From assembly GCA_963764165.1 (NCBI GenBank), contig CAVXRD010000002.1, positions 2,592,001 through 2,656,000 of the forward strand: a DNA stretch of 64,000 nucleotides, read 5' to 3'. Positions 10,971 through 39,305 of this stretch are shown here, piece by piece. The number at the start of each line of letters is the position of its first letter. Within the stretch, counting starts at the first letter, position 1. Origin of the DNA: an uncultured Verrucomicrobiae bacterium (GTDB taxonomy: Bacteria; Verrucomicrobiota; Verrucomicrobiia; Limisphaerales; Palsa-1400). Position numbers and translations under genes: made by a program. Below the pieces are notes generated by a model. The model ran no database searches and had not been told where the DNA came from. It was given only the letters and a program-made list of their open reading frames with translations.

Positions 10971-11007
10971 GCATTCACGCGTCTTAACCGTGCTCCATTG
11001 AGACGCT

Positions 11008-11113
11008 CGGTAGGGCGAGGCTCCTGCCGAGCCGGCCTATAATTCCCATTTTTATGGGATGAATGGGAATGATGGGAGTTATGGGGCGGCTCGGCAGGAG
11101 CCTCGCCCTACCG
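11008..11113. repeat. REP doublet, family A (GTAG-type)
   Basis: Perfect 27-bp inverted repeat cggtagggcgaggctcctgccgagccg (11008-11034 / 11087-11113). Confidence 0.9.
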
Positions 11114-11133
11114 TGCCATATAAACTAACACGT

Positions 11134-11166
11134 CTTCATCCAATCTTAAGGTTCGCTCTGCATAAT
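11134..11166 (+). promoter_or_regulatory. Putative OmpR-family direct-repeat box and -10 element
   Basis: CTTCAtccaatCTTAAGGTT followed by CATAAT; matches CTTCAcgcatcCTTAAGGTT at 13591. Confidence 0.6.
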
Positions 11167-11209
11167 GGCTGTCGTGACGCAGGAAGTCATGATAGCGTCG
11201 GCCCAAGCC

Positions 11210-11860
11210 ATGCGGCTTTTGATTGTCGAAGATGAACCGGATTTGCGCAGCGGACTTGAACAAGCCCTGCGCGAGGAAGGCTACGCGGTGGATTCCGCAG
11301 GCGAAGGAACCGAAGCTCTTTACAAGGCGGAAACCTGGGATTACGACACCATCGTGCTGGATATCATGCTTCCAGGCATCGACGGCTGGGAAATTCTCAA
11401 GCGCATTCGGAAAACAAAAAAGGTTCCAGTCCTCATGCTGACCGCGCGGGATGCCTTCACCGACCGCGTTCGCGGCCTTGATCTCGGGGCGGATGATTAT
11501 CTCGTCAAGCCGTTTGATCTTTCGGAACTTCTGGCCCGCGTTCGCGCTTTGATCCGCCGCTCGGCGGGTTCCCCGAATCCCGTTTCTGTCCTTGGCCCCA
11601 TCGCCATCAACACTGCTTCGCGCCATGTCGAAGTCGAGGGCAAGCACGTCGAGCTGACAGCGCGGGAATACGCGTTGCTCGAATATCTCGTCAACCGCCG
11701 GGGCGTCGTCGTCAGCCGCACGGAATTGTATGACCACCTGTTTGCGGAGGAGGACGAGTCATGCTCAAATCTTCTTGACGTTCACGTTTGCAATCTGCGT
11801 CGGAAGCTCGGCAAGGATTTGATTCAAACCCGCCGCGGCCACGGCTACGTGGTGGAATAA
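11210..11860 (+). CDS. OmpR-family response regulator
   Basis: MRLLIVEDE, LDIMLP, GADDYLVKPF, winged helix LTAREYALL...TRRGHGY; an in-frame GTG at 11174 is an alternative start. Confidence 0.93.
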   Translation: MRLLIVEDEPDLRSGLEQALREEGYAVDSAGEGTEALYKAETWDYDTIVLDIMLPGIDGWEILKRIRKTKKVPVLMLTARDAFTDRVRGLDLGADDYLVKPFDLSELLARVRALIRRSAGSPNPVSVLGPIAINTASRHVEVEGKHVELTAREYALLEYLVNRRGVVVSRTELYDHLFAEEDESCSNLLDVHVCNLRRKLGKDLIQTRRGHGYVVE

Positions 11861-11864
11861 CCGC

Positions 11865-13304
11865 ATGTTCCCCAAATCCATTCGCTGGCGGATTCAATTG
11901 TGGCATGGCGCTCTTCTCGTTTGCCTGGTGGCTGTGATGCTCGGCACTTTTTACGTCTACGTTCGCGCCGAGAAATTCCGTTTGGTTGATGATCAGCTTG
12001 AATCTTATTTGACGCCCTTGATGCCGCATTTGTTTCCGCCGGGCGGCGGGCGCGGATTCGGGCCACCGGCCGGCCCGGACGATGATCCGCCAGAGGACGA
12101 GCCATTCGGCGGACCGCACGAGCGCGGCCGGCCCGAACCAACGGAATTCGGCAGCGAGCAATCCAAAGGAGTCTACTACACCGCGTGGTCGTCGCGGGGA
12201 ATGGTCGTTGCCAAAACAACGAATTCCCCGGCTCTGACACCACCTCGCGCGGAAGAGGGCCGTCATCGCGCCAGCCGCCTGCGGGGCACAGCGCGGGAAT
12301 TAATCGTCTTCACTCCGCACGACGGTGTCGTCGTTCTTGGCATGCCGATCGGCACCACACTGGACGAGCTTCACCGGCTGGCTTGGATCGAGGCGCTGGC
12401 GGGCGTGGGATTGGTGGCCTTCGGATTGGCGGGCGGCTGGTGGGTGGCTGGACATACGTTGCAACCCATTCAAGAAATCAGCAAAGTCGCTGACAACATC
12501 GCGGCTGGCGATCGAGCGCGTCGCATCAATGTCCAGGAGGCAGACAGCGAATTGGGAAAATTGGCCACCGTATTAAACACAACTTTCGACAAGCTCGACA
12601 AGGCCTTCGAGCAGCAGGTTCATTTTACCGCCGATGCCTCCCATGAACTGCGCACTCCTGTTTCCGTTATCCTGACCCAGACTCAGTTGGCTTTGTCCCG
12701 CGAGCGTGCCGGCGCCGAATATCGCGAAAGCCTCGCCGTCTGCCAGCGCGCCGCCGAACGGATGCGCGGCCTCATCAACACGCTGCTTGACCTCGCACGG
12801 GCGGATGGAACCGGATTCGACTTGACGGTGGCCGATTGCGATTTGCGCCGCATAGCTGACAGCGCCATTGATCTCGTTGGAACGCTCGCGGCACAAAAGG
12901 AAACGAAACTGCAAGTCAACGTCGACGCCATTCATTTGAAAGGCGATCCATCCAAATTGGAGCAGGTGCTGGTCAATCTTTTGCAGAACGCCATCCTCCA
13001 CAACCCTCCCGGCACGCAAGTTTGTTTGTCGATCCACTCGAAGGAAGGTTACGCCGAGATTCGTGTCTCAGACGATGGAGCGGGCATCCCAGCCGAGGCG
13101 AGAGACCGTATATTTGACCGGTTTTTCCGTGTCGACAAGAGCCGGTCCAGCGCCACGGGGGGGAGCGGATTGGGGCTGGCCATTTGCAAAGCGATTATCG
13201 AAGCGCACGACGGGACTATTATCGTCGAAGATAAGGCGGCCAAGGGCACTGAGTTTCGCGTTCTGCTGCCGTTGAATTCCACGCCCGAGCCATCGAAAGG
13301 ATAG
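11865..13304 (+). CDS. Sensor histidine kinase (CusS/heavy-metal-sensor-like architecture)
   Basis: Two TMs, HAMP, H-box ADASHELRTP, N-box NLLQNA, G boxes DDGAGI and GSGLGL. Confidence 0.93.
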   Translation: MFPKSIRWRIQLWHGALLVCLVAVMLGTFYVYVRAEKFRLVDDQLESYLTPLMPHLFPPGGGRGFGPPAGPDDDPPEDEPFGGPHERGRPEPTEFGSEQSKGVYYTAWSSRGMVVAKTTNSPALTPPRAEEGRHRASRLRGTARELIVFTPHDGVVVLGMPIGTTLDELHRLAWIEALAGVGLVAFGLAGGWWVAGHTLQPIQEISKVADNIAAGDRARRINVQEADSELGKLATVLNTTFDKLDKAFEQQVHFTADASHELRTPVSVILTQTQLALSRERAGAEYRESLAVCQRAAERMRGLINTLLDLARADGTGFDLTVADCDLRRIADSAIDLVGTLAAQKETKLQVNVDAIHLKGDPSKLEQVLVNLLQNAILHNPPGTQVCLSIHSKEGYAEIRVSDDGAGIPAEARDRIFDRFFRVDKSRSSATGGSGLGLAICKAIIEAHDGTIIVEDKAAKGTEFRVLLPLNSTPEPSKG

Positions 13305-13308
13305 CGTC

Positions 13309-13485
13309 TTAACTTGGATTGATCTTGGGTTTCTCGAGACAGAGGACCAAGATACACACAAAACAAATGTCGTCGCCGGCTTCTGCGTACGGACTAAGCG
13401 AAATCCAATGTCCGCTGCGAATGATAAGACATATCAACCAAATAACTAGAAGAGTATTCAGCAGCGGTTTTCTTTTTGGATTCAT
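13309..13485 (-). CDS. Possible small membrane protein (58 aa)
   Basis: MNPKRKPLLNTLLVIWLICLII...ICFVCILVLCLEKPK; two hydrophobic stretches; AGAGGA 9 nt upstream; lower GC than flanks. Confidence 0.35.
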   Translation of the reverse strand: MNPKRKPLLNTLLVIWLICLIIRSGHWISLSPYAEAGDDICFVCILVLCLEKPKINPS

Positions 13486-13567
13486 TAGTCCATTTCCTCT
13501 CGACAGCATTATCCGCGAAATTTGCCGATCGCAATATAAATCACGGCTCTGCGCATGATATATTATG

Positions 13568-13624
13568 TTTCACGCATCATTTCCTGCGCCCTTCACGCAT
13601 CCTTAAGGTTGATTGCGCTAGAGT
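13568..13624 (+). promoter_or_regulatory. Putative OmpR-family direct-repeat box and -10 element for the YHYH-mbnPH unit
   Basis: TTCACGCATC twice (13569, 13592); CTTCA-N6-CTTAAGGTT at 13591-13610; TAGAGT 6 nt before the ATG. Confidence 0.6.
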
Positions 13625-13630
13625 GGCCGC

Positions 13631-15463
13631 ATGAAAAACAAATTTCATATACCCATCAAGTTTTCAAAAACGTTTTGGACTCTTGCGGTGGTGATCGGGA
13701 TGGCGGGCGGCGCTTCGGCGGATCCGCTTATCACTTCCTGGTTCACCACTTACTCCGGCAGATACGCCCGGATCTACACCACGGACAGCGCCAAGCTGGC
13801 AGGCGCCGCGGTCACAACGTGGACCAACGGCTCGCTGATCCAATCGCTTCCGGCTTACGACGGAATTCAGGAAGTCGATGACTCGTCCAATTGGGTTTAC
13901 ATCCGCAGCACCGGGCTGGGCTCGCATGTCATGGGGCCGTGGTATTTGGATGCGGCCCATACCCAGGCATTTCCCAGCTATCCCACCAATCAGCAGGTGC
14001 TTTATCGAATCCCTCGCTCGCCCGCGGCGGGAACAGGAACGCTGAACGGCGGTGGCGCGATTGGATATTTCGTGGATGGCGTTTCCATGTTCAACAGTTG
14101 GGATGCATTTTATTGGAACGGATCGGCGGATGTTTCCGGCGGCGCGGGCAACGGCGCTGCGTGGAATCGCGATGCATACGTCAACGAAGGCGTCACCTTC
14201 GATCCGGGCAATGCTCACCAGCCCGGCAGCGGCCAATACCATTACCACGCCAATCCCCCTGCCCTGCGCTATCTGCTGGGAGATCACGTCAATTACAATT
14301 CCGCCACGGACACTTACACCGAATCCACCAACGCGCTGACGCAGCATTCGCCCATCCTCGGCTGGGTCGCGGACGGCTGGCCGATTTATGGCCCCTATGG
14401 CTATTCGAACGCCACCAATTCCGGCAGCGGAATTCGCCGGATGATTTCCGGTTACGTTCCCCGCAACGGCGAATATGGGACGGACAATCTCTCGACCACC
14501 GGCGCAGCCCGCACGACGATCCCGGCGTGGGCGCAGAGGTTCTACAGTTTGTCCGCCGCGCAAAGCGGCCCAACCGTTTCCACCAGTTATCCATTCGGGC
14601 GTTACATGGAGGATAACGATTACCTGGGCGATCTCACTAATTCCGCGACGCACGCGGTTTACCAGCAAGGCACCGACTTCGATTTGGATGAATACAATGG
14701 CCGCTATTGCGTCACGCCGGAATATCCCAATGGCACCTACGCCTACTTCGTCGCCATAGCTTCGAATGGCACGCCCGTGTTTCCGTATAACATTGGCCGC
14801 GCCTACTACGGAGACCCGGTGGGCGGCGCGGTGTCAGGCATCGCCGAAACGGTGACGACGAATTTTGTGGGAGGCCCGAGCCTCGCGCCGGAGATCAATC
14901 CGCCGACTGTCAAGAATACAACCGTCACTTTGACCTGGAGCGCCACCGAAGGCGGAACTTACCTCGTGGCCTCCAGCACGAATCTGCAAACCTGGACAAC
15001 AAATTCCACCAACGTGTCCGCAGTGATGAACACGGGCTCATATACGAATACAAGCTTGTCCACCGAACGCTTCTACGTCGTGGCGCGGACGGCGCTTGCG
15101 GCCTATTCGCCGGTAACTGGAACAACAACGACGAGTGGAGGCGGCGGCAATCTGGTGACGATGTCTCCGAATTCCGGCGCGCGCGGCAGCACGATCACGG
15201 TGACCGCGACAATTAGCGCCAGCGCCAATCCGCCTCCGCCGCCAACAGCGGGAGCGCCGGTGGCGACCTTCACCGTCGGAACACTTAGCGTCACAAGTCC
15301 GGTGTATACAGTCAGCAGCGGCGCGGGAGTTGTGACCGGCAAACTGACAATCCCATCCACAACCGCAGCGGGAAGCCAGACGGTGACGATCACGTTCTCG
15401 CCACCACCCGGCCAAACGCAAGGGCCGACCTACACGCAATCCGGCGCGTTCACCATCGAGTGA
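13631..15463 (+). CDS. Secreted YHYH domain protein
   Basis: Signal peptide; GAIGYFVDGV, AHQPGSGQYHYH, HSPILGWVADGWPIYGPYG, DLDEYNGRYCVTPEYPNGTYAYF; C-terminal T/P-rich Ig-like tail. Confidence 0.88.
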   Translation: MKNKFHIPIKFSKTFWTLAVVIGMAGGASADPLITSWFTTYSGRYARIYTTDSAKLAGAAVTTWTNGSLIQSLPAYDGIQEVDDSSNWVYIRSTGLGSHVMGPWYLDAAHTQAFPSYPTNQQVLYRIPRSPAAGTGTLNGGGAIGYFVDGVSMFNSWDAFYWNGSADVSGGAGNGAAWNRDAYVNEGVTFDPGNAHQPGSGQYHYHANPPALRYLLGDHVNYNSATDTYTESTNALTQHSPILGWVADGWPIYGPYGYSNATNSGSGIRRMISGYVPRNGEYGTDNLSTTGAARTTIPAWAQRFYSLSAAQSGPTVSTSYPFGRYMEDNDYLGDLTNSATHAVYQQGTDFDLDEYNGRYCVTPEYPNGTYAYFVAIASNGTPVFPYNIGRAYYGDPVGGAVSGIAETVTTNFVGGPSLAPEINPPTVKNTTVTLTWSATEGGTYLVASSTNLQTWTTNSTNVSAVMNTGSYTNTSLSTERFYVVARTALAAYSPVTGTTTTSGGGGNLVTMSPNSGARGSTITVTATISASANPPPPPTAGAPVATFTVGTLSVTSPVYTVSSGAGVVTGKLTIPSTTAAGSQTVTITFSPPPGQTQGPTYTQSGAFTIE

Positions 15464-15470
15464 TCACCAC

Positions 15471-17360
15471 ATGAGCGATTGCAACATCACGCGAGTCCTG
15501 ATGCTCCTTGCATTGGGACTCGCCTTGGGCGCGCAGGGCGCCTCGCTGGAAATCGGCATCACGCCGAAGTTTTCGAGCGAGGTGATCCAACCGGCTTCGC
15601 TCCGTTACCGCACCTCGGCGGGCGAGGCGTTTTCGATCACCCGCGTCAGTTTCCTCGCCAGCGATTTTGCGCTTCAACGAATGGACGGGACGTGGTTGGA
15701 GATGACAAACTCGGCGGCCTGGTTCGATCTTGAGCGCAATCGAAATTCATTTCGCCTCGATGAGATTCCTGTGGGCGAATACGGATCGATTCGCTTTTGC
15801 ATCGGCCTTGAGACGAATCTCAATCACGCCGACGTTGCGCAATTCCCCGCAGGGCATACCCTCAATCCGGAGGTCAACGGACTCCACTGGAGCTGGCAGG
15901 GCGGTTACATTTTTCTCGCGCTTGAGGGTTTGTGGAGAAACGCGGGCGGCCAGTTTGACGGCTGGGCCTACCATCTGGCGCGCGATCCCAATTGCACGCG
16001 CATCACGCTCGCGGCGCCGTTGACAATTACGGACCGCTCTCGCGTCGATATCGACTTTGATATTGCCACACTTCTCAACGCGCCTCGTCCGCTTTCGTTC
16101 GCGCAGGACGGAACTTCGACACACTCACGCGACGGCGATCCGATTGCGGCGGCGCTCGACTCGAATTTGCCGGGCGCGTTTCGGATCCATGGCGTCAATA
16201 CGAATATCGAAACCGCCGCATCCCTTGCGCGTGTGGAGCCGTTGTATTTGCCAAAGAAATTCACTCCATACGCGTTCAACATGAATGCCACGTTTCCAAT
16301 CCCCGACCTGCCCCGCGACAATCCGCTCACGGTGGAACGCGTCGCGCTTGGCGAAATGCTCTTTCACGAAACGGCGCTCTCGCGCGATGGCACGTTGTCC
16401 TGCGCCTCGTGTCACAAAACATCCGAAGGCATGAGTGACGCGCGGCAATTCAGTGTCGGCGTTCGCGGTCAGGTAGGAGTCCGCCACGCCATGCCGTTGT
16501 TCAATCTGGCGTGGAAACGAACGTTCTTTTGGGATGGGCGTGCGCCTTCACTCCGCGCGCAATCGCTCATGCCCATTCAAGACCATTCCGAAATGGATGA
16601 ATCGCTGGCCAGCGTCGCGACCAAACTCGCAGCGGATTCAAATTATCGCGCGGCTTTCCAAACGGCCTTTGAGCCCGGCGACATCACGCCCGAAAAAATC
16701 AGCCTCGCGCTGGAGCAATTTCTACTGACCCGCATTTCTGGCGACTCGAAATTTGATCGAGCCATGCGCGGAGCAGAAACACTCACGGACGAAGAGAAGC
16801 GCGGTTTCCAATTATTCTCAACCGAATATGATCCGCGCCGCGGACAATTTGGAGCCGATTGTTTTCACTGCCACGGCGGCATGCTTTTCAAGAGCCAGGA
16901 ATTCGGAAATAACGGGCTCGATTCGGATGTCAAAGACAGCGCGAACCAATCGCCGGTAGGGACGCCTCGCCGAGGCGTCCGGGGTGAGGCGATTTCCACG
17001 CGCAACCTAGGACGCCTCGGTGAGGCGTCCCTACCTTTAAGCCCCAAAGACATCGGACGCGCCAAGGTAACTGGCAAGGATTCGGACGCTGGCAAATTCG
17101 CCGTTCCTTCGTTGCGAAATGTGGAATTGCGAGCGCCTTACATGCATGACGGACGTTTCAAAACATTGGAGGAAGCCGTGGCGCATTACAGCACTGGAGT
17201 CAGACGGAGCGCCACGCTTGATCCCAATTTGGCAAAGCATCCTGATGGCGGGCTTCATCTGAGCGATTCGGATCAAAGGGCGTTGGTTGCTTTTCTAAAA
17301 ACGCTGACCGACGATTCACGGCGCACGAACGCTGACAGAGTCGTCGCGAGCACCCTCTGA
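15471..17360 (+). CDS. MbnP-MbnH fusion (copper-binding MbnP domain plus di-heme cytochrome c peroxidase/MauG-family domain)
   Basis: N-terminal half has HWSWQGGYIFL (MbnP WxW motif); C-terminal half has CASCH, FWDGRA, CFHCH, VPSLRNV..RAPYMHDG. Confidence 0.82.
   Translation: MSDCNITRVLMLLALGLALGAQGASLEIGITPKFSSEVIQPASLRYRTSAGEAFSITRVSFLASDFALQRMDGTWLEMTNSAAWFDLERNRNSFRLDEIPVGEYGSIRFCIGLETNLNHADVAQFPAGHTLNPEVNGLHWSWQGGYIFLALEGLWRNAGGQFDGWAYHLARDPNCTRITLAAPLTITDRSRVDIDFDIATLLNAPRPLSFAQDGTSTHSRDGDPIAAALDSNLPGAFRIHGVNTNIETAASLARVEPLYLPKKFTPYAFNMNATFPIPDLPRDNPLTVERVALGEMLFHETALSRDGTLSCASCHKTSEGMSDARQFSVGVRGQVGVRHAMPLFNLAWKRTFFWDGRAPSLRAQSLMPIQDHSEMDESLASVATKLAADSNYRAAFQTAFEPGDITPEKISLALEQFLLTRISGDSKFDRAMRGAETLTDEEKRGFQLFSTEYDPRRGQFGADCFHCHGGMLFKSQEFGNNGLDSDVKDSANQSPVGTPRRGVRGEAISTRNLGRLGEASLPLSPKDIGRAKVTGKDSDAGKFAVPSLRNVELRAPYMHDGRFKTLEEAVAHYSTGVRRSATLDPNLAKHPDGGLHLSDSDQRALVAFLKTLTDDSRRTNADRVVASTL
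16955..17035. repeat. REP doublet, family B, inserted in-frame inside the MbnH domain
   Basis: ggtagggacgcctcgccgaggcgtcc ... ggacgcctcggtgaggcgtccctacc; 81 bp = 27 codons; same family at 19511 and 39204. Confidence 0.9.
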
Positions 17361-20873: not shown

Positions 20874-20939
20874 CGCCCTCTCTTTCTTCCTTTTCAGATT
20901 TTAAGGTGATCTTTGGCCCGAATAGTTTACACTGCAATT

Positions 20940-23618
20940 ATGGCAGAGGACAGTCGCCCAGACCCGGATGCCTTGCTGGCGGCGATTCAGAAAAGCGAGG
21001 CCGAAACCAACCGCGGGAAATTCAAAGTTTTCCTCGGCATGGCCGCAGGCGTGGGCAAGACCTACGCCATGCTCCGCGCCGCCCAGCGCGCCCAGCGCGA
21101 AGGCCTCGACGTGATGGTCGGATACGTCGAGACGCACGGTCGCAAAGAGACCGAGGCGCTGCTGGCGGGCTTGACGGTTTTGCCGCGCCGCAAGGTGGAA
21201 TATCGCGGCGTGACGCTGGAGGAAATGGATCTCGACGGGCTTCTCGCGCGGCGTCCCAGGCTGGCAGTCGTGGATGAATTGCCGCATACGAACGCCCCCG
21301 GCTCGCGCCACGCCAAACGTTACCAGGACATCCTCGAATTGCTCGACGCGGGCATTGACGTCTATACAACGATGAACGTGCAGCACGCCGAGAGCCGGGT
21401 GGACACCGTCCGCCAAATCACCGGCTCAACCGTGCAGGAGACGATTCCCGACAGCGTGCTGGATGGCGCGGAAATGGAATTGATCGATCTCCCGCCCGAG
21501 GAACTTCTCAAGCGCCTCGACGAAGGCAAAGTTTACATGCCGGAACGGGCCGAACTGGCGATGATGAATTTTTTTCGCGAAGGCAATCTCAACGCGCTCC
21601 GCGAAATGGCGCTCCGACTGGCCGCCGATCATGTTGGGCAGGATGTGCATGATTATTTGCAAGCGATGCAAATTTCCGGCCCGTGGCGCTCCGGGCATCG
21701 CTTGCTGGTCGCCGTAAGCCCGAGTCCCTACTCGCCGCACATGATTCGATGGACCCGCAGGCTCGCGGATAATCTCGATTGCCCGTGGCTGGCTGTTTAC
21801 GTCGAGCAGCCGCGTCCGTTTTCCGAGGCGGACCAGGATCGCCTGAACAAACATCTGGCGCTGGCCCGGGAACTTGGAGCGGAAGTCATCACGACGGCGG
21901 ACACAGGAATTGGCCGGGGCATTTTGCGCGTGGCGCGCCAGCAAAACGTCACCCAAATCGTCGTCGGCAAGCCGGGCGGTTCCGGCTTCATGGATTGGCT
22001 GCGGAGCGGGCGATTGCTTCGGCAGCTTGTGCGGGACAGCGGGAATATTGAATTGCACGTCGTCCGGCCGGAGATGGACGAAAAATTCGCGAGGCCCAAA
22101 CATGCGCTGTTTGCATTTGAATCGCCGCTCGCGCAGTACGGCGCGGGCCTTGCGGTGGTGGCGCTTTGCACCGCCATAAACGCGCTCATTTTTCCGAAAG
22201 TCGGCGAGCACGCCCCGGCTCTGATTTACTTGCTGGGCGTCGTGCTGCTGGCGTTCGGCGTCGGGCCTGGCCCCACGTTTGCGACCGCCACCGCCAGCGC
22301 GCTGATGTGGGATTATTTTTTCCTGCCGCCGCGCTTCACTTTCTACTTGACTAAGCTGGAGGACATTTTGATGTTCGCCATGTATTTCGTCGTTGCGCTG
22401 GTGCTGGGGCAATTCGCCTCGCGCCTGCGCTGGCAGGAGCGCTCCGAGCGGCGGCGCGAGGAGCGCTCCACCGCGCTGTATCTTTTGACGCGCGATCTGG
22501 CCGATGCGGTGGACATCAATGATGTTGTGCAAAGACTCGTGCGGCAGGTGGCGGCTGCGTTCAAGGCGAAAGCCGCCATTCTCCTGCGCGAAACGGACGG
22601 AACTCTCGCCCGCGCGGCGCATCCGGCCAGCGCGTTCGGCGTTTCCGAAAAGGAACAAAGCGTCGCCGCGTGGGCTTTTCGCTTCGGCAAAACGGCTGGG
22701 CGGTTCACTGACAATCTTCCTCTTGCCTCGGCGATTTACCTGCCGCTGCAAACCAATCGAGGCCCCGCGGGCGTGCTCGCGGTGGCGCTGGATGGCGAGC
22801 GCCCACCCACACTTGAGCAGCGGGATTTGCTGGACGCCTACGCGCGGCAGGCGGCGCTGGTGCTGGACCGGCTCCGGCTGGATGCCGAGTCGCAGCAGGC
22901 GCAATTGCTGACGGAGTCGGAAAAATTGAGCAAGGCGCTGCTGAATTCCATTTCGCACGAATTGCGCACGCCCATCGCCGCGATCACCACCGCGGCCAGC
23001 GCGCTGGTGGAAACGAACACGCCCGCCAATATTCGCAGCGCCATGGCGCTCGAAATTCAGGAAAGCGCGGCGCGGCTGAACCGGCTGGTCAGCAATCTGC
23101 TTGACATGACGCGCCTGGAATCCGGCAAGGTGAAGCCGCACATGGATTGGTGTGACGCGTCGGACCTTATCAACGTCGCGCTGCGCCAAAATGAACGCGA
23201 ACTGTCGCGCCATGAAGTCAAACTGCTGCTGGCTCAGCCGCTGCCGCTGGTGAAAATGGATTTTGTGCTGATGGAACAGGCGCTGAACAACTTGCTTTTG
23301 AACGCCGCGCATTACACGCCGGACGGAACGGCCGTCGAAATCAAGGCTTCCGCCACGGCGGACGAAATGACCATTTCCGTCGGTGACCGAGGGCCTGGAC
23401 TTCCCCCGGAGAGCTTGCCGCATGTGTTTGAAAAATTTTATCGCGTGCCCGGCGCGCCGGCCGGCGGAACCGGCCTCGGCCTTTCCATTGTCAAAGGCCT
23501 GGTGGAAGCGCAAGGCGGCAGGGTCGAGGTCCGCAACCGCCCGGGCGGCGGCGCTGAATTTAGCATTTATCTGGCTGTGGAACCACATCCGCAACCAGTC
23601 CTGGAGCAAGCCTTATGA
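20940..23618 (+). CDS. kdpD: Osmosensitive K+ sensor histidine kinase KdpD
   Basis: RPDPDALL, GMAAGVGKTYAML, VETHGR, VDELPHTN, USP domain, 4 TMs, GAF, SISHELRTP. Confidence 0.96.
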   Translation: MAEDSRPDPDALLAAIQKSEAETNRGKFKVFLGMAAGVGKTYAMLRAAQRAQREGLDVMVGYVETHGRKETEALLAGLTVLPRRKVEYRGVTLEEMDLDGLLARRPRLAVVDELPHTNAPGSRHAKRYQDILELLDAGIDVYTTMNVQHAESRVDTVRQITGSTVQETIPDSVLDGAEMELIDLPPEELLKRLDEGKVYMPERAELAMMNFFREGNLNALREMALRLAADHVGQDVHDYLQAMQISGPWRSGHRLLVAVSPSPYSPHMIRWTRRLADNLDCPWLAVYVEQPRPFSEADQDRLNKHLALARELGAEVITTADTGIGRGILRVARQQNVTQIVVGKPGGSGFMDWLRSGRLLRQLVRDSGNIELHVVRPEMDEKFARPKHALFAFESPLAQYGAGLAVVALCTAINALIFPKVGEHAPALIYLLGVVLLAFGVGPGPTFATATASALMWDYFFLPPRFTFYLTKLEDILMFAMYFVVALVLGQFASRLRWQERSERRREERSTALYLLTRDLADAVDINDVVQRLVRQVAAAFKAKAAILLRETDGTLARAAHPASAFGVSEKEQSVAAWAFRFGKTAGRFTDNLPLASAIYLPLQTNRGPAGVLAVALDGERPPTLEQRDLLDAYARQAALVLDRLRLDAESQQAQLLTESEKLSKALLNSISHELRTPIAAITTAASALVETNTPANIRSAMALEIQESAARLNRLVSNLLDMTRLESGKVKPHMDWCDASDLINVALRQNERELSRHEVKLLLAQPLPLVKMDFVLMEQALNNLLLNAAHYTPDGTAVEIKASATADEMTISVGDRGPGLPPESLPHVFEKFYRVPGAPAGGTGLGLSIVKGLVEAQGGRVEVRNRPGGGAEFSIYLAVEPHPQPVLEQAL

Positions 23619-24319
23619 CGGAAAGCGCCGCCCCCCATCAACCGGTCGTCCTGGTCATTGACGACGAAATTCAAATGCGGCGCCTGCTGCGCGTGACGCT
23701 TGAAGGCAATGGCTATCGCATGTTTGAAGCAGCCACCGGCCAGGCGGGTTTGATCGAAGCGGCCCAGCGCCGTCCGGAAATTGTCGTGCTCGACCTGGGT
23801 CTGCCGGATATGGATGGCCTGGAAGTTTTGAAGCGCTTGCGCGAATGGACAGAAGCGCCGGTGATCGTTCTATCTGTGCGCGAAGGCGAAGAGGATAAAG
23901 TCGGCGCGCTGGACCGCGGAGCGGATGATTACATGAACAAGCCGTTCAGCACAGCCGAGCTGCTGGCGCGGCTTCGCGCGGCCCGGCGGCGCGCGCAACC
24001 GGTGGCCGACACCGCGGTTTTTCAATCGGGCCCGCTCGAAGTCGATTTGTCCAGCCGCCAGGTGCGCCGCAAAGGCGAGGAAATCAAATTGACACCCACT
24101 GAATATTCCCTCCTTCGCCTGCTGGTGCGAAACGCCGGGAAAGTCGTCACACACCGGCAAATCCTCAAGGAAGTGTGGGGCCCGACCTACGGCGAGCAAA
24201 CCCATTATCTGCGAGTTTACGTCGCGCACCTTCGCGAGAAACTGGAGGAAGACGCCAGCCGGCCGGAACTTTTGTTGACTGAGCCGGGGATAGGCTACCG
24301 GCTGAAGGCGGAAGCGTGA
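23615..24319 (+). CDS. kdpE: Response regulator KdpE
   Basis: LDLGLPDMDG, THRQILKEVWG, HYLRVYV, LTEPGIGYR; ATGA overlap with kdpD. Confidence 0.93.
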   Translation: MTESAAPHQPVVLVIDDEIQMRRLLRVTLEGNGYRMFEAATGQAGLIEAAQRRPEIVVLDLGLPDMDGLEVLKRLREWTEAPVIVLSVREGEEDKVGALDRGADDYMNKPFSTAELLARLRAARRRAQPVADTAVFQSGPLEVDLSSRQVRRKGEEIKLTPTEYSLLRLLVRNAGKVVTHRQILKEVWGPTYGEQTHYLRVYVAHLREKLEEDASRPELLLTEPGIGYRLKAEA

Positions 24320-39203: not shown

Positions 39204-39305
39204 GAGGTAGGGACGCCTCGCCGAGGCGTCCGAGGACTCTCGCGATTCCGAACGCGGTCGAAAAGCGCCACAGCCCCGGACGCCTCGGCGAGGCGTCCCT
39301 ACCTC
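39204..39305. repeat. REP doublet, family B
   Basis: Perfect 29-bp IR gaggtagggacgcctcgccgaggcgtccg; preceded at 39182 by ggtgtaattgaaagtgggg, a relic of the 19299-type element end. Confidence 0.9.

Follow-up and report, generated by a model that had tools for sequence, protein, structure and literature searches.

MbnP and MbnH of Methylosinus trichosporium OB3b (entries 7L6G and 6E1C) are the described proteins closest to those studied here. Copper in MbnP is liganded by a His, a Met, the kynurenine Kyn174 and water, and MbnH shows a MauG-like near-IR band (PMC11951088, in part). MauG bis-Fe(IV) chemistry is marked by Tyr-His ligation of the six-coordinate haem together with a bridging Trp (PMC6405878, in part). 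When mbnP or mbnH is deleted, copper-bound methanobactin stays outside the cell (PMC13729199). MbnP/MbnH pairs are known far beyond methanobactin producers (PMC3621798, in part), and MopE* and CorA bind copper at a His/His/Kyn/water site (PMC11951088, in part). For the YHYH family (PF14240), according to a 2026 preprint, neither metal nor enzyme data exist (bioRxiv 2026.10.18.759936, in part). Here we analysed a stretch of 64,000 nucleotides (the window; contig CAVXRD010000002.1, positions 2,592,001 to 2,656,000) from an uncultured Verrucomicrobiae bacterium, in which a two-component system (TCS) precedes a YHYH gene and a gene in which MbnP and MbnH are fused. We tentatively propose that the fusion loads copper into the secreted YHYH protein, under the control of the response regulator (RR) and its operator boxes.

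The MbnP-MbnH fusion is real and is the standard form in this lineage. Pfam found in one frame an MbnP domain (PF20243, E 3.1e-28, residues 25-213) and a CCP_MauG domain (E 2e-50, residues 289-436), and both domains were present in all 119 listed fusion homologues (56-70% identity, 93-98% coverage). Of the 92 MbnP matches in the order sample (251 genomes), 78 lay within open frames of at least 500 aa. The names of homologues also point to Verrucomicrobiota. The AlphaFold model of the fusion reached pLDDT 84 and pTM 0.81, and its two halves separately matched MbnH (6E1C) and MbnP (7L6G). Seven residues, W140, W142, H168, H218, W354, E374 and Y573, were invariant in 118/118 fusions.

A first-pass annotation, made from the letters of the window, had described an OmpR/histidine kinase (HK) pair followed by a YHYH gene and a 629-aa gene with a WxW and two CxxCH motifs, the latter two genes 7 bp apart. 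Open reading frame (ORF) calling and Pfam confirmed this layout, in which the gaps are 4 bp between RR and HK, 326 bp between HK and YHYH and 7 bp between YHYH and the fusion. The features are as follows.

11133..11153, + strand: operator box 1, YCTTCA-N5-YCTTAAGGTT, a QseB/PmrA-type direct repeat 5' of the RR gene; predicted autoregulation site
11165-11860, + strand: RR gene, 231 aa counted from the first ATG; OmpR family, PmrA/QseB-like ('type A'), Pfam PF00072 and PF00486 (Response_reg and Trans_reg_C)
11865-13304, + strand: sensor HK gene, 479 aa; Pfam HAMP, HisKA and HATPase_c
13590..13610, + strand: operator box 2, about 40 bp 5' of the YHYH start codon; predicted to control the promoter of the YHYH-mbnPH operon
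13631-15463, + strand: long-type YHYH gene, 610 aa; PF14240 E 1.7e-35 (residues 125-379)
15471-17360, + strand: MbnP-MbnH fusion gene, 629 aa, signal-peptide-like N-terminus
15540..16205, + strand: MbnP-like domain of the fusion, PF20243; W140-x-W142, H168, H218, Leu138
16260..17330, + strand: MbnH/MauG-type di-haem domain of the fusion; CASCH 311, CFHCH 464, W354, E374, axial Y573
16932..17045, + strand: in-frame REP insertion in the MbnH half, 114 bp = 38 codons, GTAG-type inverted pair

The YHYH protein and the fusion both have hydrophobic, signal-peptide-like N-termini, as judged by a hydropathy reading and not by a trained predictor. A scan for sigma-70 promoters and terminators gave results at or below chance. 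No RNA run was on record for this region, which has no bearing on its expression.

The N-terminal half of the fusion proved to be MbnP-like, as the first-pass annotation had read it, both by profile and by fold. It scored 99.4 bits against PF20243 (cut-off 27) and 32.9 bits against the TIGR04052 equivalog, thus missing the cut-off of 140. Model residues 1-220 matched the fold of 7L6G (Z 17.5, rmsd 3.3, 208 aligned); by sequence, 7L6G was missed by a single-sequence search with the MbnP domain and found by a profile search. The WSW motif lies at residues 140-142, and W140, W142 and H168 align to the WNW of 7L6G and the His of its WMVH. W140 would correspond to W174, by a 25-residue offset taken from the chain range of the fold match. 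The sequence of 7L6G holds one Met two residues before WxW and another in a later CMS motif. In the fusions, Leu stands two residues before WxW (Leu138 here) in 116/118 cases and in 81/86 of a broader set; the CMS Met aligns with the invariant His218. No conserved Met column was found in the MbnP half of the 118 fusions. The four-Cys motif of the 7L6G entry name was absent as well, no Cys column of the MbnP domain exceeding 23/118. Because the Met before WxW is Leu, the CMS Met is His218 and no Met column exists, a His168/His218/Kyn140 site, that is, a His/His/kynurenine copper site on the MbnP half, is predicted.

The di-haem half is of MbnH type, and in this the first-pass annotation was right. 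It keeps the catalytic residues of MauG and MbnH, namely the CxxCH pair, W354, E374 and Y573. Both CxxCH motifs (CASCH 311 and CFHCH 464) were kept in 118/118 fusions. The half has the bCcP/MauG fold, with 6E1C (Z 28.9) and 3L4M (Z 28.3) tied, and 6E1C was its best match by sequence and fold. Y573, the axial residue of haem 2, aligns with MauG Y294 and with the equivalent Tyr of 6E1C, and W354 is presumably the counterpart of the inter-haem W93 of MauG. The MauG variants Y294H, E113Q, Q103N and P107V/S/C all scored under wild-type MauG against the fusion, which is consistent with fusion identity at those MauG sites. Against TIGR04039 the half scored 214.2 bits; this was the best of its families and missed the cut-off of 362.85, so we describe it as MbnH-like in its working and do not file it as an equivalog. 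The MauG family TIGR03791 gave 170 (cut-off 444). With these residues in place, and with chemistry borrowed from MauG and MbnH, the di-haem half together with H2O2 would form a bis-Fe(IV) oxidant that converts Trp140 of the tethered MbnP domain to kynurenine. Kyn140, His168 and His218 would then form the copper site, the second His replacing the canonical MbnP Met.

The first-pass annotation had missed the REP insertion in the mbnH half. Its arms lie at 16955-16985 and 17005-17035, it is flanked by an 8-bp direct repeat, and its columns were filled in at most 1 of 117 homologues. The insert begins 20 residues past the second CxxCH, and the model loop there has pLDDT below 50. The 15-nt core of the REP arm has 254 exact copies across the genome, and GTAG-type REP elements are abundant, two more lying in the window at 39204-39305 (the same REP) and 11005-11116. 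Homologues P0032, P0077 and P0093 have in-frame inserts too, at another loop, and genes of this lineage may often take up repeats in frame. One could suppose that the insertion, 38 residues close behind a haem motif and without counterpart in homologues, has disabled the fusion here and that the locus is in decay, although the cassette may function in other genomes. We consider this very improbable: the frame is kept with all invariant residues present, the model folds around the disordered loop, three homologues carry inserts elsewhere, and the branch of this fusion in the tree is of median length (0.29 versus 0.28). The REP insertion is probably harmless to the fusion, and an insert-free homologue is the safer protein for bench work.

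The YHYH protein consists of a signal-peptide-like N-terminus, a core of about 390 aa and a C-terminal part of about 190 aa without Pfam match, which is likely an Ig-like stalk. It scored 123 bits against PF14240 (cut-off 25). W178, E186, D191, H196, H206, H239 and D248 were present in 146/146 aligned YHYH cores, and H204 in 145/146. YHYH proteins had been called His-rich in the first-pass annotation; this does not hold here, for the His content is only 1.5%, with four conserved His. The AF2 model of the 390-residue core reached pLDDT 95.3. No convincing PDB match was found by sequence, profile, Foldseek or VIA-align (best Z 3.2), which does not by itself prove a new fold, and the ESM Atlas gave no usable match to the core outside PF14240. 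The long-type profile matched 4,501 clusters at 50% identity. From 150 listed YHYH representatives, 81 long ones were scanned. Many of the 81 carry Ig- or cadherin-like stalks; these, together with the catalytic fusions given below, fit a surface-displayed catalytic domain. Our prediction is that YHYH is a secreted three-histidine metalloenzyme. Several long YHYH proteins have at least two YHYH cores, with up to 3,673 aa in locus L169. This genome has a second YHYH-domain gene (contig C2, 1443272-1444864; locus L100, 7273-8865), which lies behind the same type of operator box; its product is a 530-aa short-type protein that bears a D-x-C-C-G-H motif and whose N-terminal domain matches no Pfam family.

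The linkage of YHYH with mbnPH, on which the first-pass annotation had built its proposal, is conserved in the phylum, order, metagenome and Bacteroidota neighbourhoods. In the phylum sample (401 genomes including this one), MbnP was found in 16 and YHYH in 30, the two lying within about 3.5 kb in 12 of the 16. The order sample of 251 genomes contained 86 with MbnP, 74 with long YHYH, 70 with both and 161 with neither; MbnP was thus present in 70/74 long-YHYH genomes versus 16/177 others. Long type here means a match at E 1e-44 or better, weaker matches being set aside as short type, and no p-value is given since many assemblies are fragmented and related genomes are not independent. The pair lay within 5 kb in 56/86 MbnP genomes, with YHYH upstream on the same strand in 55. 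Of the metagenome loci, 41 extended at least 3 kb downstream, and 29 of these held MbnP. Among 211 Bacteroidota genomes, 13 had long YHYH, and at the 12 loci besides the centre genome five had separate mbnP and mbnH and one (L278) an mbnH-like gene only. The Bacteroidota order of separate mbnP, mbnH, then YHYH was seen at L048, L056, L060, L065, L078-L080, L275, L279, L280 and L286. Pfam scans of Bacteroidota loci also showed a type 9 secretion system (T9SS) tail on YHYH (L048 and L056) and, upstream in L056, an ECF sigma and a Metal_resist gene.

Where YHYH is missing, its place is often taken by a galactose-oxidase-like copper enzyme. The four phylum genomes with unlinked MbnP comprised three with a galactose-oxidase-like giant adjoining the fusion and one with a distant YHYH-multicopper oxidase fusion. 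In the order, 12 of the 16 MbnP genomes without long YHYH were examined, and seven had a galactose-oxidase-like giant beside the fusion; the other five were two contig edges, two broken mbnP genes and one genome with separate mbnH and mbnP. One giant was aligned and kept the Cys, Tyr, Tyr-His and His motifs of PDB galactose oxidases. A multicopper oxidase is fused to YHYH in L086 (5667-10874) and P0282 and stands between mbnH and YHYH in L072 (2885-6611). Because copper enzymes replace or adjoin YHYH, and because a role of MbnPH in copper release or uptake is reported (PMC13729199), we tentatively propose copper hand-over. The final and weakest step of the proposal, suggested by gene context, would be delivery of copper to the H196/H204/H206(/H239) centre of YHYH. 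A wider claim, that YHYH is a new-fold secreted copper enzyme and the fusion a self-activating copper chaperone that converts its own Trp for a His/His/kynurenine site and metallates interchangeable extracellular clients, is possible but doubtful; equally doubtful is the assignment of its clients, YHYH in most lineages and the galactose-oxidase-like enzyme in one branch. If true, it would give a role to two unexplained families at once.

The galactose-oxidase-like proteins are of 2,200-2,950 aa and directly follow the fusion in L001-L003, L093-L095, L135-L139, L141 and L146, some of them split or cut by contig ends. Three giants scanned by Pfam had added lectin or PA14 and PKD domains, and two of them di-haem-like domains. 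P0282 also carries a sulfatase, and L072 a thioredoxin-like (AhpC/TSA) gene between the multicopper oxidase and YHYH.

The MbnH half might act on YHYH itself. Copper radical oxidases are primed by peroxidases, and MbnH could in a similar way oxidise YHYH to give a Trp cofactor, with W178 as the candidate, or a primed redox centre. W178 is kept in every aligned core, the residues for MauG-type long-range oxidation are intact, and in L278 an mbnH-like gene without mbnP lies beside YHYH. In fungi, a copper radical oxidase depends on a partner peroxidase for its activation (PMC13390370, in part). We nevertheless judge such oxidative maturation improbable, as a Trp at a similar place occurs in short-type YHYH and in the phylum genome G337, which has no MbnP match, and as the galactose-oxidase giants carry a di-haem-like module of their own. 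W178 was for the same reason rejected as a marker of MbnH dependence, being non-specific.

The control of the cassette was studied through its operator boxes. Upstream of both the RR and the YHYH gene stands a direct repeat of 11-bp period. In the 7.0-Mb genome the strict box matches 3 sites, against 0.006 expected: those at 11133 and 13590, and a third 41 bp 5' of the one further YHYH-domain ORF found. Since the first two sites defined the pattern, the third is the sole independent test. The box before RR and both YHYH genes, CTTCA-N6-CTTAAG, is one base off the QseB/PmrA consensus CTTAA-N6-CTTAA (PMC5053249, in part). This box (box A) also occurs before the RR gene in L004, L006, L114 and several order-level loci, and 40-44 bp before the YHYH start in 10/56 related loci. 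From 39 of the 56 genomes in which the pair is adjacent we retrieved 40 loci, and the box counts add 80 metagenome loci. A response regulator was present in 24/40 fetched loci, mostly divergent from YHYH, with the tandem order of the window in one. The regulators are of two unrelated types, A and B, type B looking CpxR-like. Loci with type A had box A in 29/31 cases and box B in none, those with type B had box B (TTTAC-N5-YTTAAC) in 19/22 and box A in 1, and 46/67 loci without regulator had neither. Box type thus tracks regulator type, so the operator changes with the regulator. On these counts over the order and metagenome loci, we rejected the idea of a TCS link without conservation. To judge from these patterns, the TCS very likely controls the YHYH-mbnPH operon through the shared box: the HK would phosphorylate the RR, which would then bind the boxes observed before its own gene, the YHYH-mbnPH operon and the second YHYH gene.

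The purpose of the system was then considered. The first-pass annotation had proposed a methanobactin-independent copper or metal handling system. Its first part stands: among 42 ORFs of the window scanned by Pfam, 0 MbnB or TonB-receptor families were found (mbnA and mbnC were not searched individually), and in a genome-wide profile search the single PF05114 match lay on contig C3 and all 12 PF00593 matches lay outside the window. A gene of the MbnB/TglH/ChrH (DUF692) family is present elsewhere in this genome (contig C3, 128044-128829). Copper sensing or homeostasis as the purpose was not supported. The RR scored best in NCBIfam against PmrA (230 versus a cut-off of 330 bits) and reached 180 versus 345 for QseB, so both equivalogs were missed, as were the heavy-metal TCS families TIGR01387 (213 versus 279) and TIGR01386 (263 versus 293). 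Sensor domains of the CusRS/CopRS type have conserved His/Met metal ligands. No His/Met/Cys column was common to at least 10/13 type-A kinases in sensor residues 34-176, and this speaks against a copper sensor of the CusS type. Classical copper acquisition or homeostasis, in which copper would be sensed by the TCS and released or stored by the fusion, with YHYH as a MopE/CorA-like surface scavenger of copper, can claim the stranded methanobactin of the mbnP and mbnH deletions (PMC13729199) and the fact that the best NCBIfam match of the HK is a heavy-metal sensor family. That match, however, is the one under cut-off at 263 versus 293 bits; moreover the sensor region is without conserved His/Met/Cys, the cassette is served by two unrelated TCS types, the canonical Met ligand is absent, and there is neither a TonB-receptor gene in the window nor a recognisable copper transporter among recurrent neighbours. 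We regard this explanation as quite improbable. The inducing signal is probably envelope stress and not copper itself.

Nine neighbour clusters recurred in at least 3/56 loci. One includes an EF-hand protein; for the rest, N-terminal motifs alone gave the labels (among them sulfatase-like, kinase-like and beta-propeller-like). With mostly such labels, no copper transporter or chaperone was recognisable among the nine clusters of the 56 loci. A kinase-like gene (by motif) and a short-type second YHYH often follow the fusion (L178, L179, L181, L183, L184, L189 and L175), and in L147 (4193-8008) three tandem serpin genes lie directly downstream of it.

Several observations weigh against copper loading of YHYH by the fusion. 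Both candidate Met ligands of MbnP are lost in the fusion, so copper binding is not assured, and the REP insertion could impair this genome's copy. In a tree of 86 fusions, 12/13 galactose-oxidase-linked ones fell in one branch (SH-aLRT 96, quick method, midpoint root); this partner therefore represents roughly a single event, and we claim no sequence of events. At 6/12 Bacteroidota long-YHYH loci no mbnP or mbnH was found nearby, and G337 has a YHYH of related type without MbnP match; YHYH may thus be able to do without the system. Among catalytic domains fused to long YHYH, sulfatase is the most frequent (14/81), with multicopper oxidase in 1/81. Two published predictions assign Zn and a His3 site to YHYH, and one paper a hydrolase role (PMC7824862 and bioRxiv 2026.10.18.759936, both in part).

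The Zn/His3 predictions and the sulfatase fusions would agree with co-regulation without hand-over. YHYH would then be a secreted Zn hydrolase and the fusion would separately buffer copper or peroxide in the envelope, an explanation that is possible but rather unlikely. We give the same standing to its second part, that the pair stays together as part of a single regulon for envelope stress, along with sulfatase-like, EF-hand and beta-propeller proteins. A neighbour cluster that we assume, from its N-terminal motif, to be sulfatase-like occurs in 14/56 loci, box A also precedes other small secreted genes, and Flavobacterium loci have an ECF sigma and a Metal_resist (Spy/CpxP-like) gene 5' of mbnP. 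Mere co-regulation is harder to reconcile with the tight order, in which YHYH lies directly upstream on the same strand in 55/86 MbnP genomes, with the near-constant co-occurrence of the long type with MbnP (70/74), and with a linkage that persists across changes of regulator and phylum.

Some further genes were recorded. Downstream of the fusion, on the opposite strand and with a 45-bp overlap with its end, lies an ORF that Pfam finds to be PQQ-dependent glucose/sorbosone-dehydrogenase-like. A kdpD-kdpE pair lies at 20913-24319 of the window, with no KdpABC family among the 42 ORFs. The genome encodes a second CCP_MauG-domain protein (512 aa, without MbnP match; L099, 9108-10646; C2 near 2877644), whose gene in L099 is near MotA/ExbB, TonB and PD40 (tol-like) genes.

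The YHYH family is large and without a solved relative, and this locus is a first lead for it. The locus joins YHYH and MbnP outside methanobactin producers and offers a predicted operator, an enzyme joined in one chain to its predicted substrate, and candidate ligands identified by residue, so that one small operon can address the action of MbnH on MbnP in cis, copper at a His-for-Met site and the metal in YHYH. No paper was found that connects YHYH to MbnP/MbnH or reports such a fusion, the genome-neighbourhood analyses of the primary MbnP/MbnH studies not being covered.

In comparison with known systems, the fusion shares with MbnP/MbnH of OB3b the fold, the WxW, the aligned His, the axial Tyr and the export signals. 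It differs in being one polypeptide, in having neither candidate Met nor conserved Cys, and in missing the cut-offs of TIGR04052 and TIGR04039; its locus has no TonB receptor or mbn genes and has instead a YHYH partner and a QseB/PmrA-like TCS. Methanotroph MopE/SACCP and CorA/CorB likewise combine a di-haem peroxidase-like gene with a neighbouring partner that has a kynurenine copper site (PMC11951088, in part), and their ligand set of two His and kynurenine is the one predicted here. MopE and CorA are separate proteins of other folds, whereas here the His/His/Trp set is on an MbnP fold fused to the enzyme. As in MauG of Paracoccus denitrificans there is an axial Tyr, Tyr294 aligning with Y573; unlike MauG, there are no methylamine dehydrogenase genes and the predicted substrate is the fused MbnP domain. 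The YHYH protein has the conserved His triad and Asp of phage YHYH domains (PMC7824862, in part), but it belongs to a long subtype, with its core of about 390 aa, tied to mbnPH. The TCS is an OmpR-type pair like QseBC/PmrAB, with predicted autoregulation and, as known for ygiW (PMC5053249, in part), predicted control of neighbouring exported proteins; it lies below all equivalog cut-offs, has a lineage-specific sensor domain and has YHYH and mbnPH as its probable targets. Finally, the fungal tandem of AA5_2 copper radical oxidase and haem peroxidase also sets a peroxidase gene beside a secreted copper enzyme and parallels the galactose-oxidase-linked branch (PMC13390370, in part), although its peroxidase is of another class without MbnP domain, and YHYH is not a copper radical oxidase homologue.

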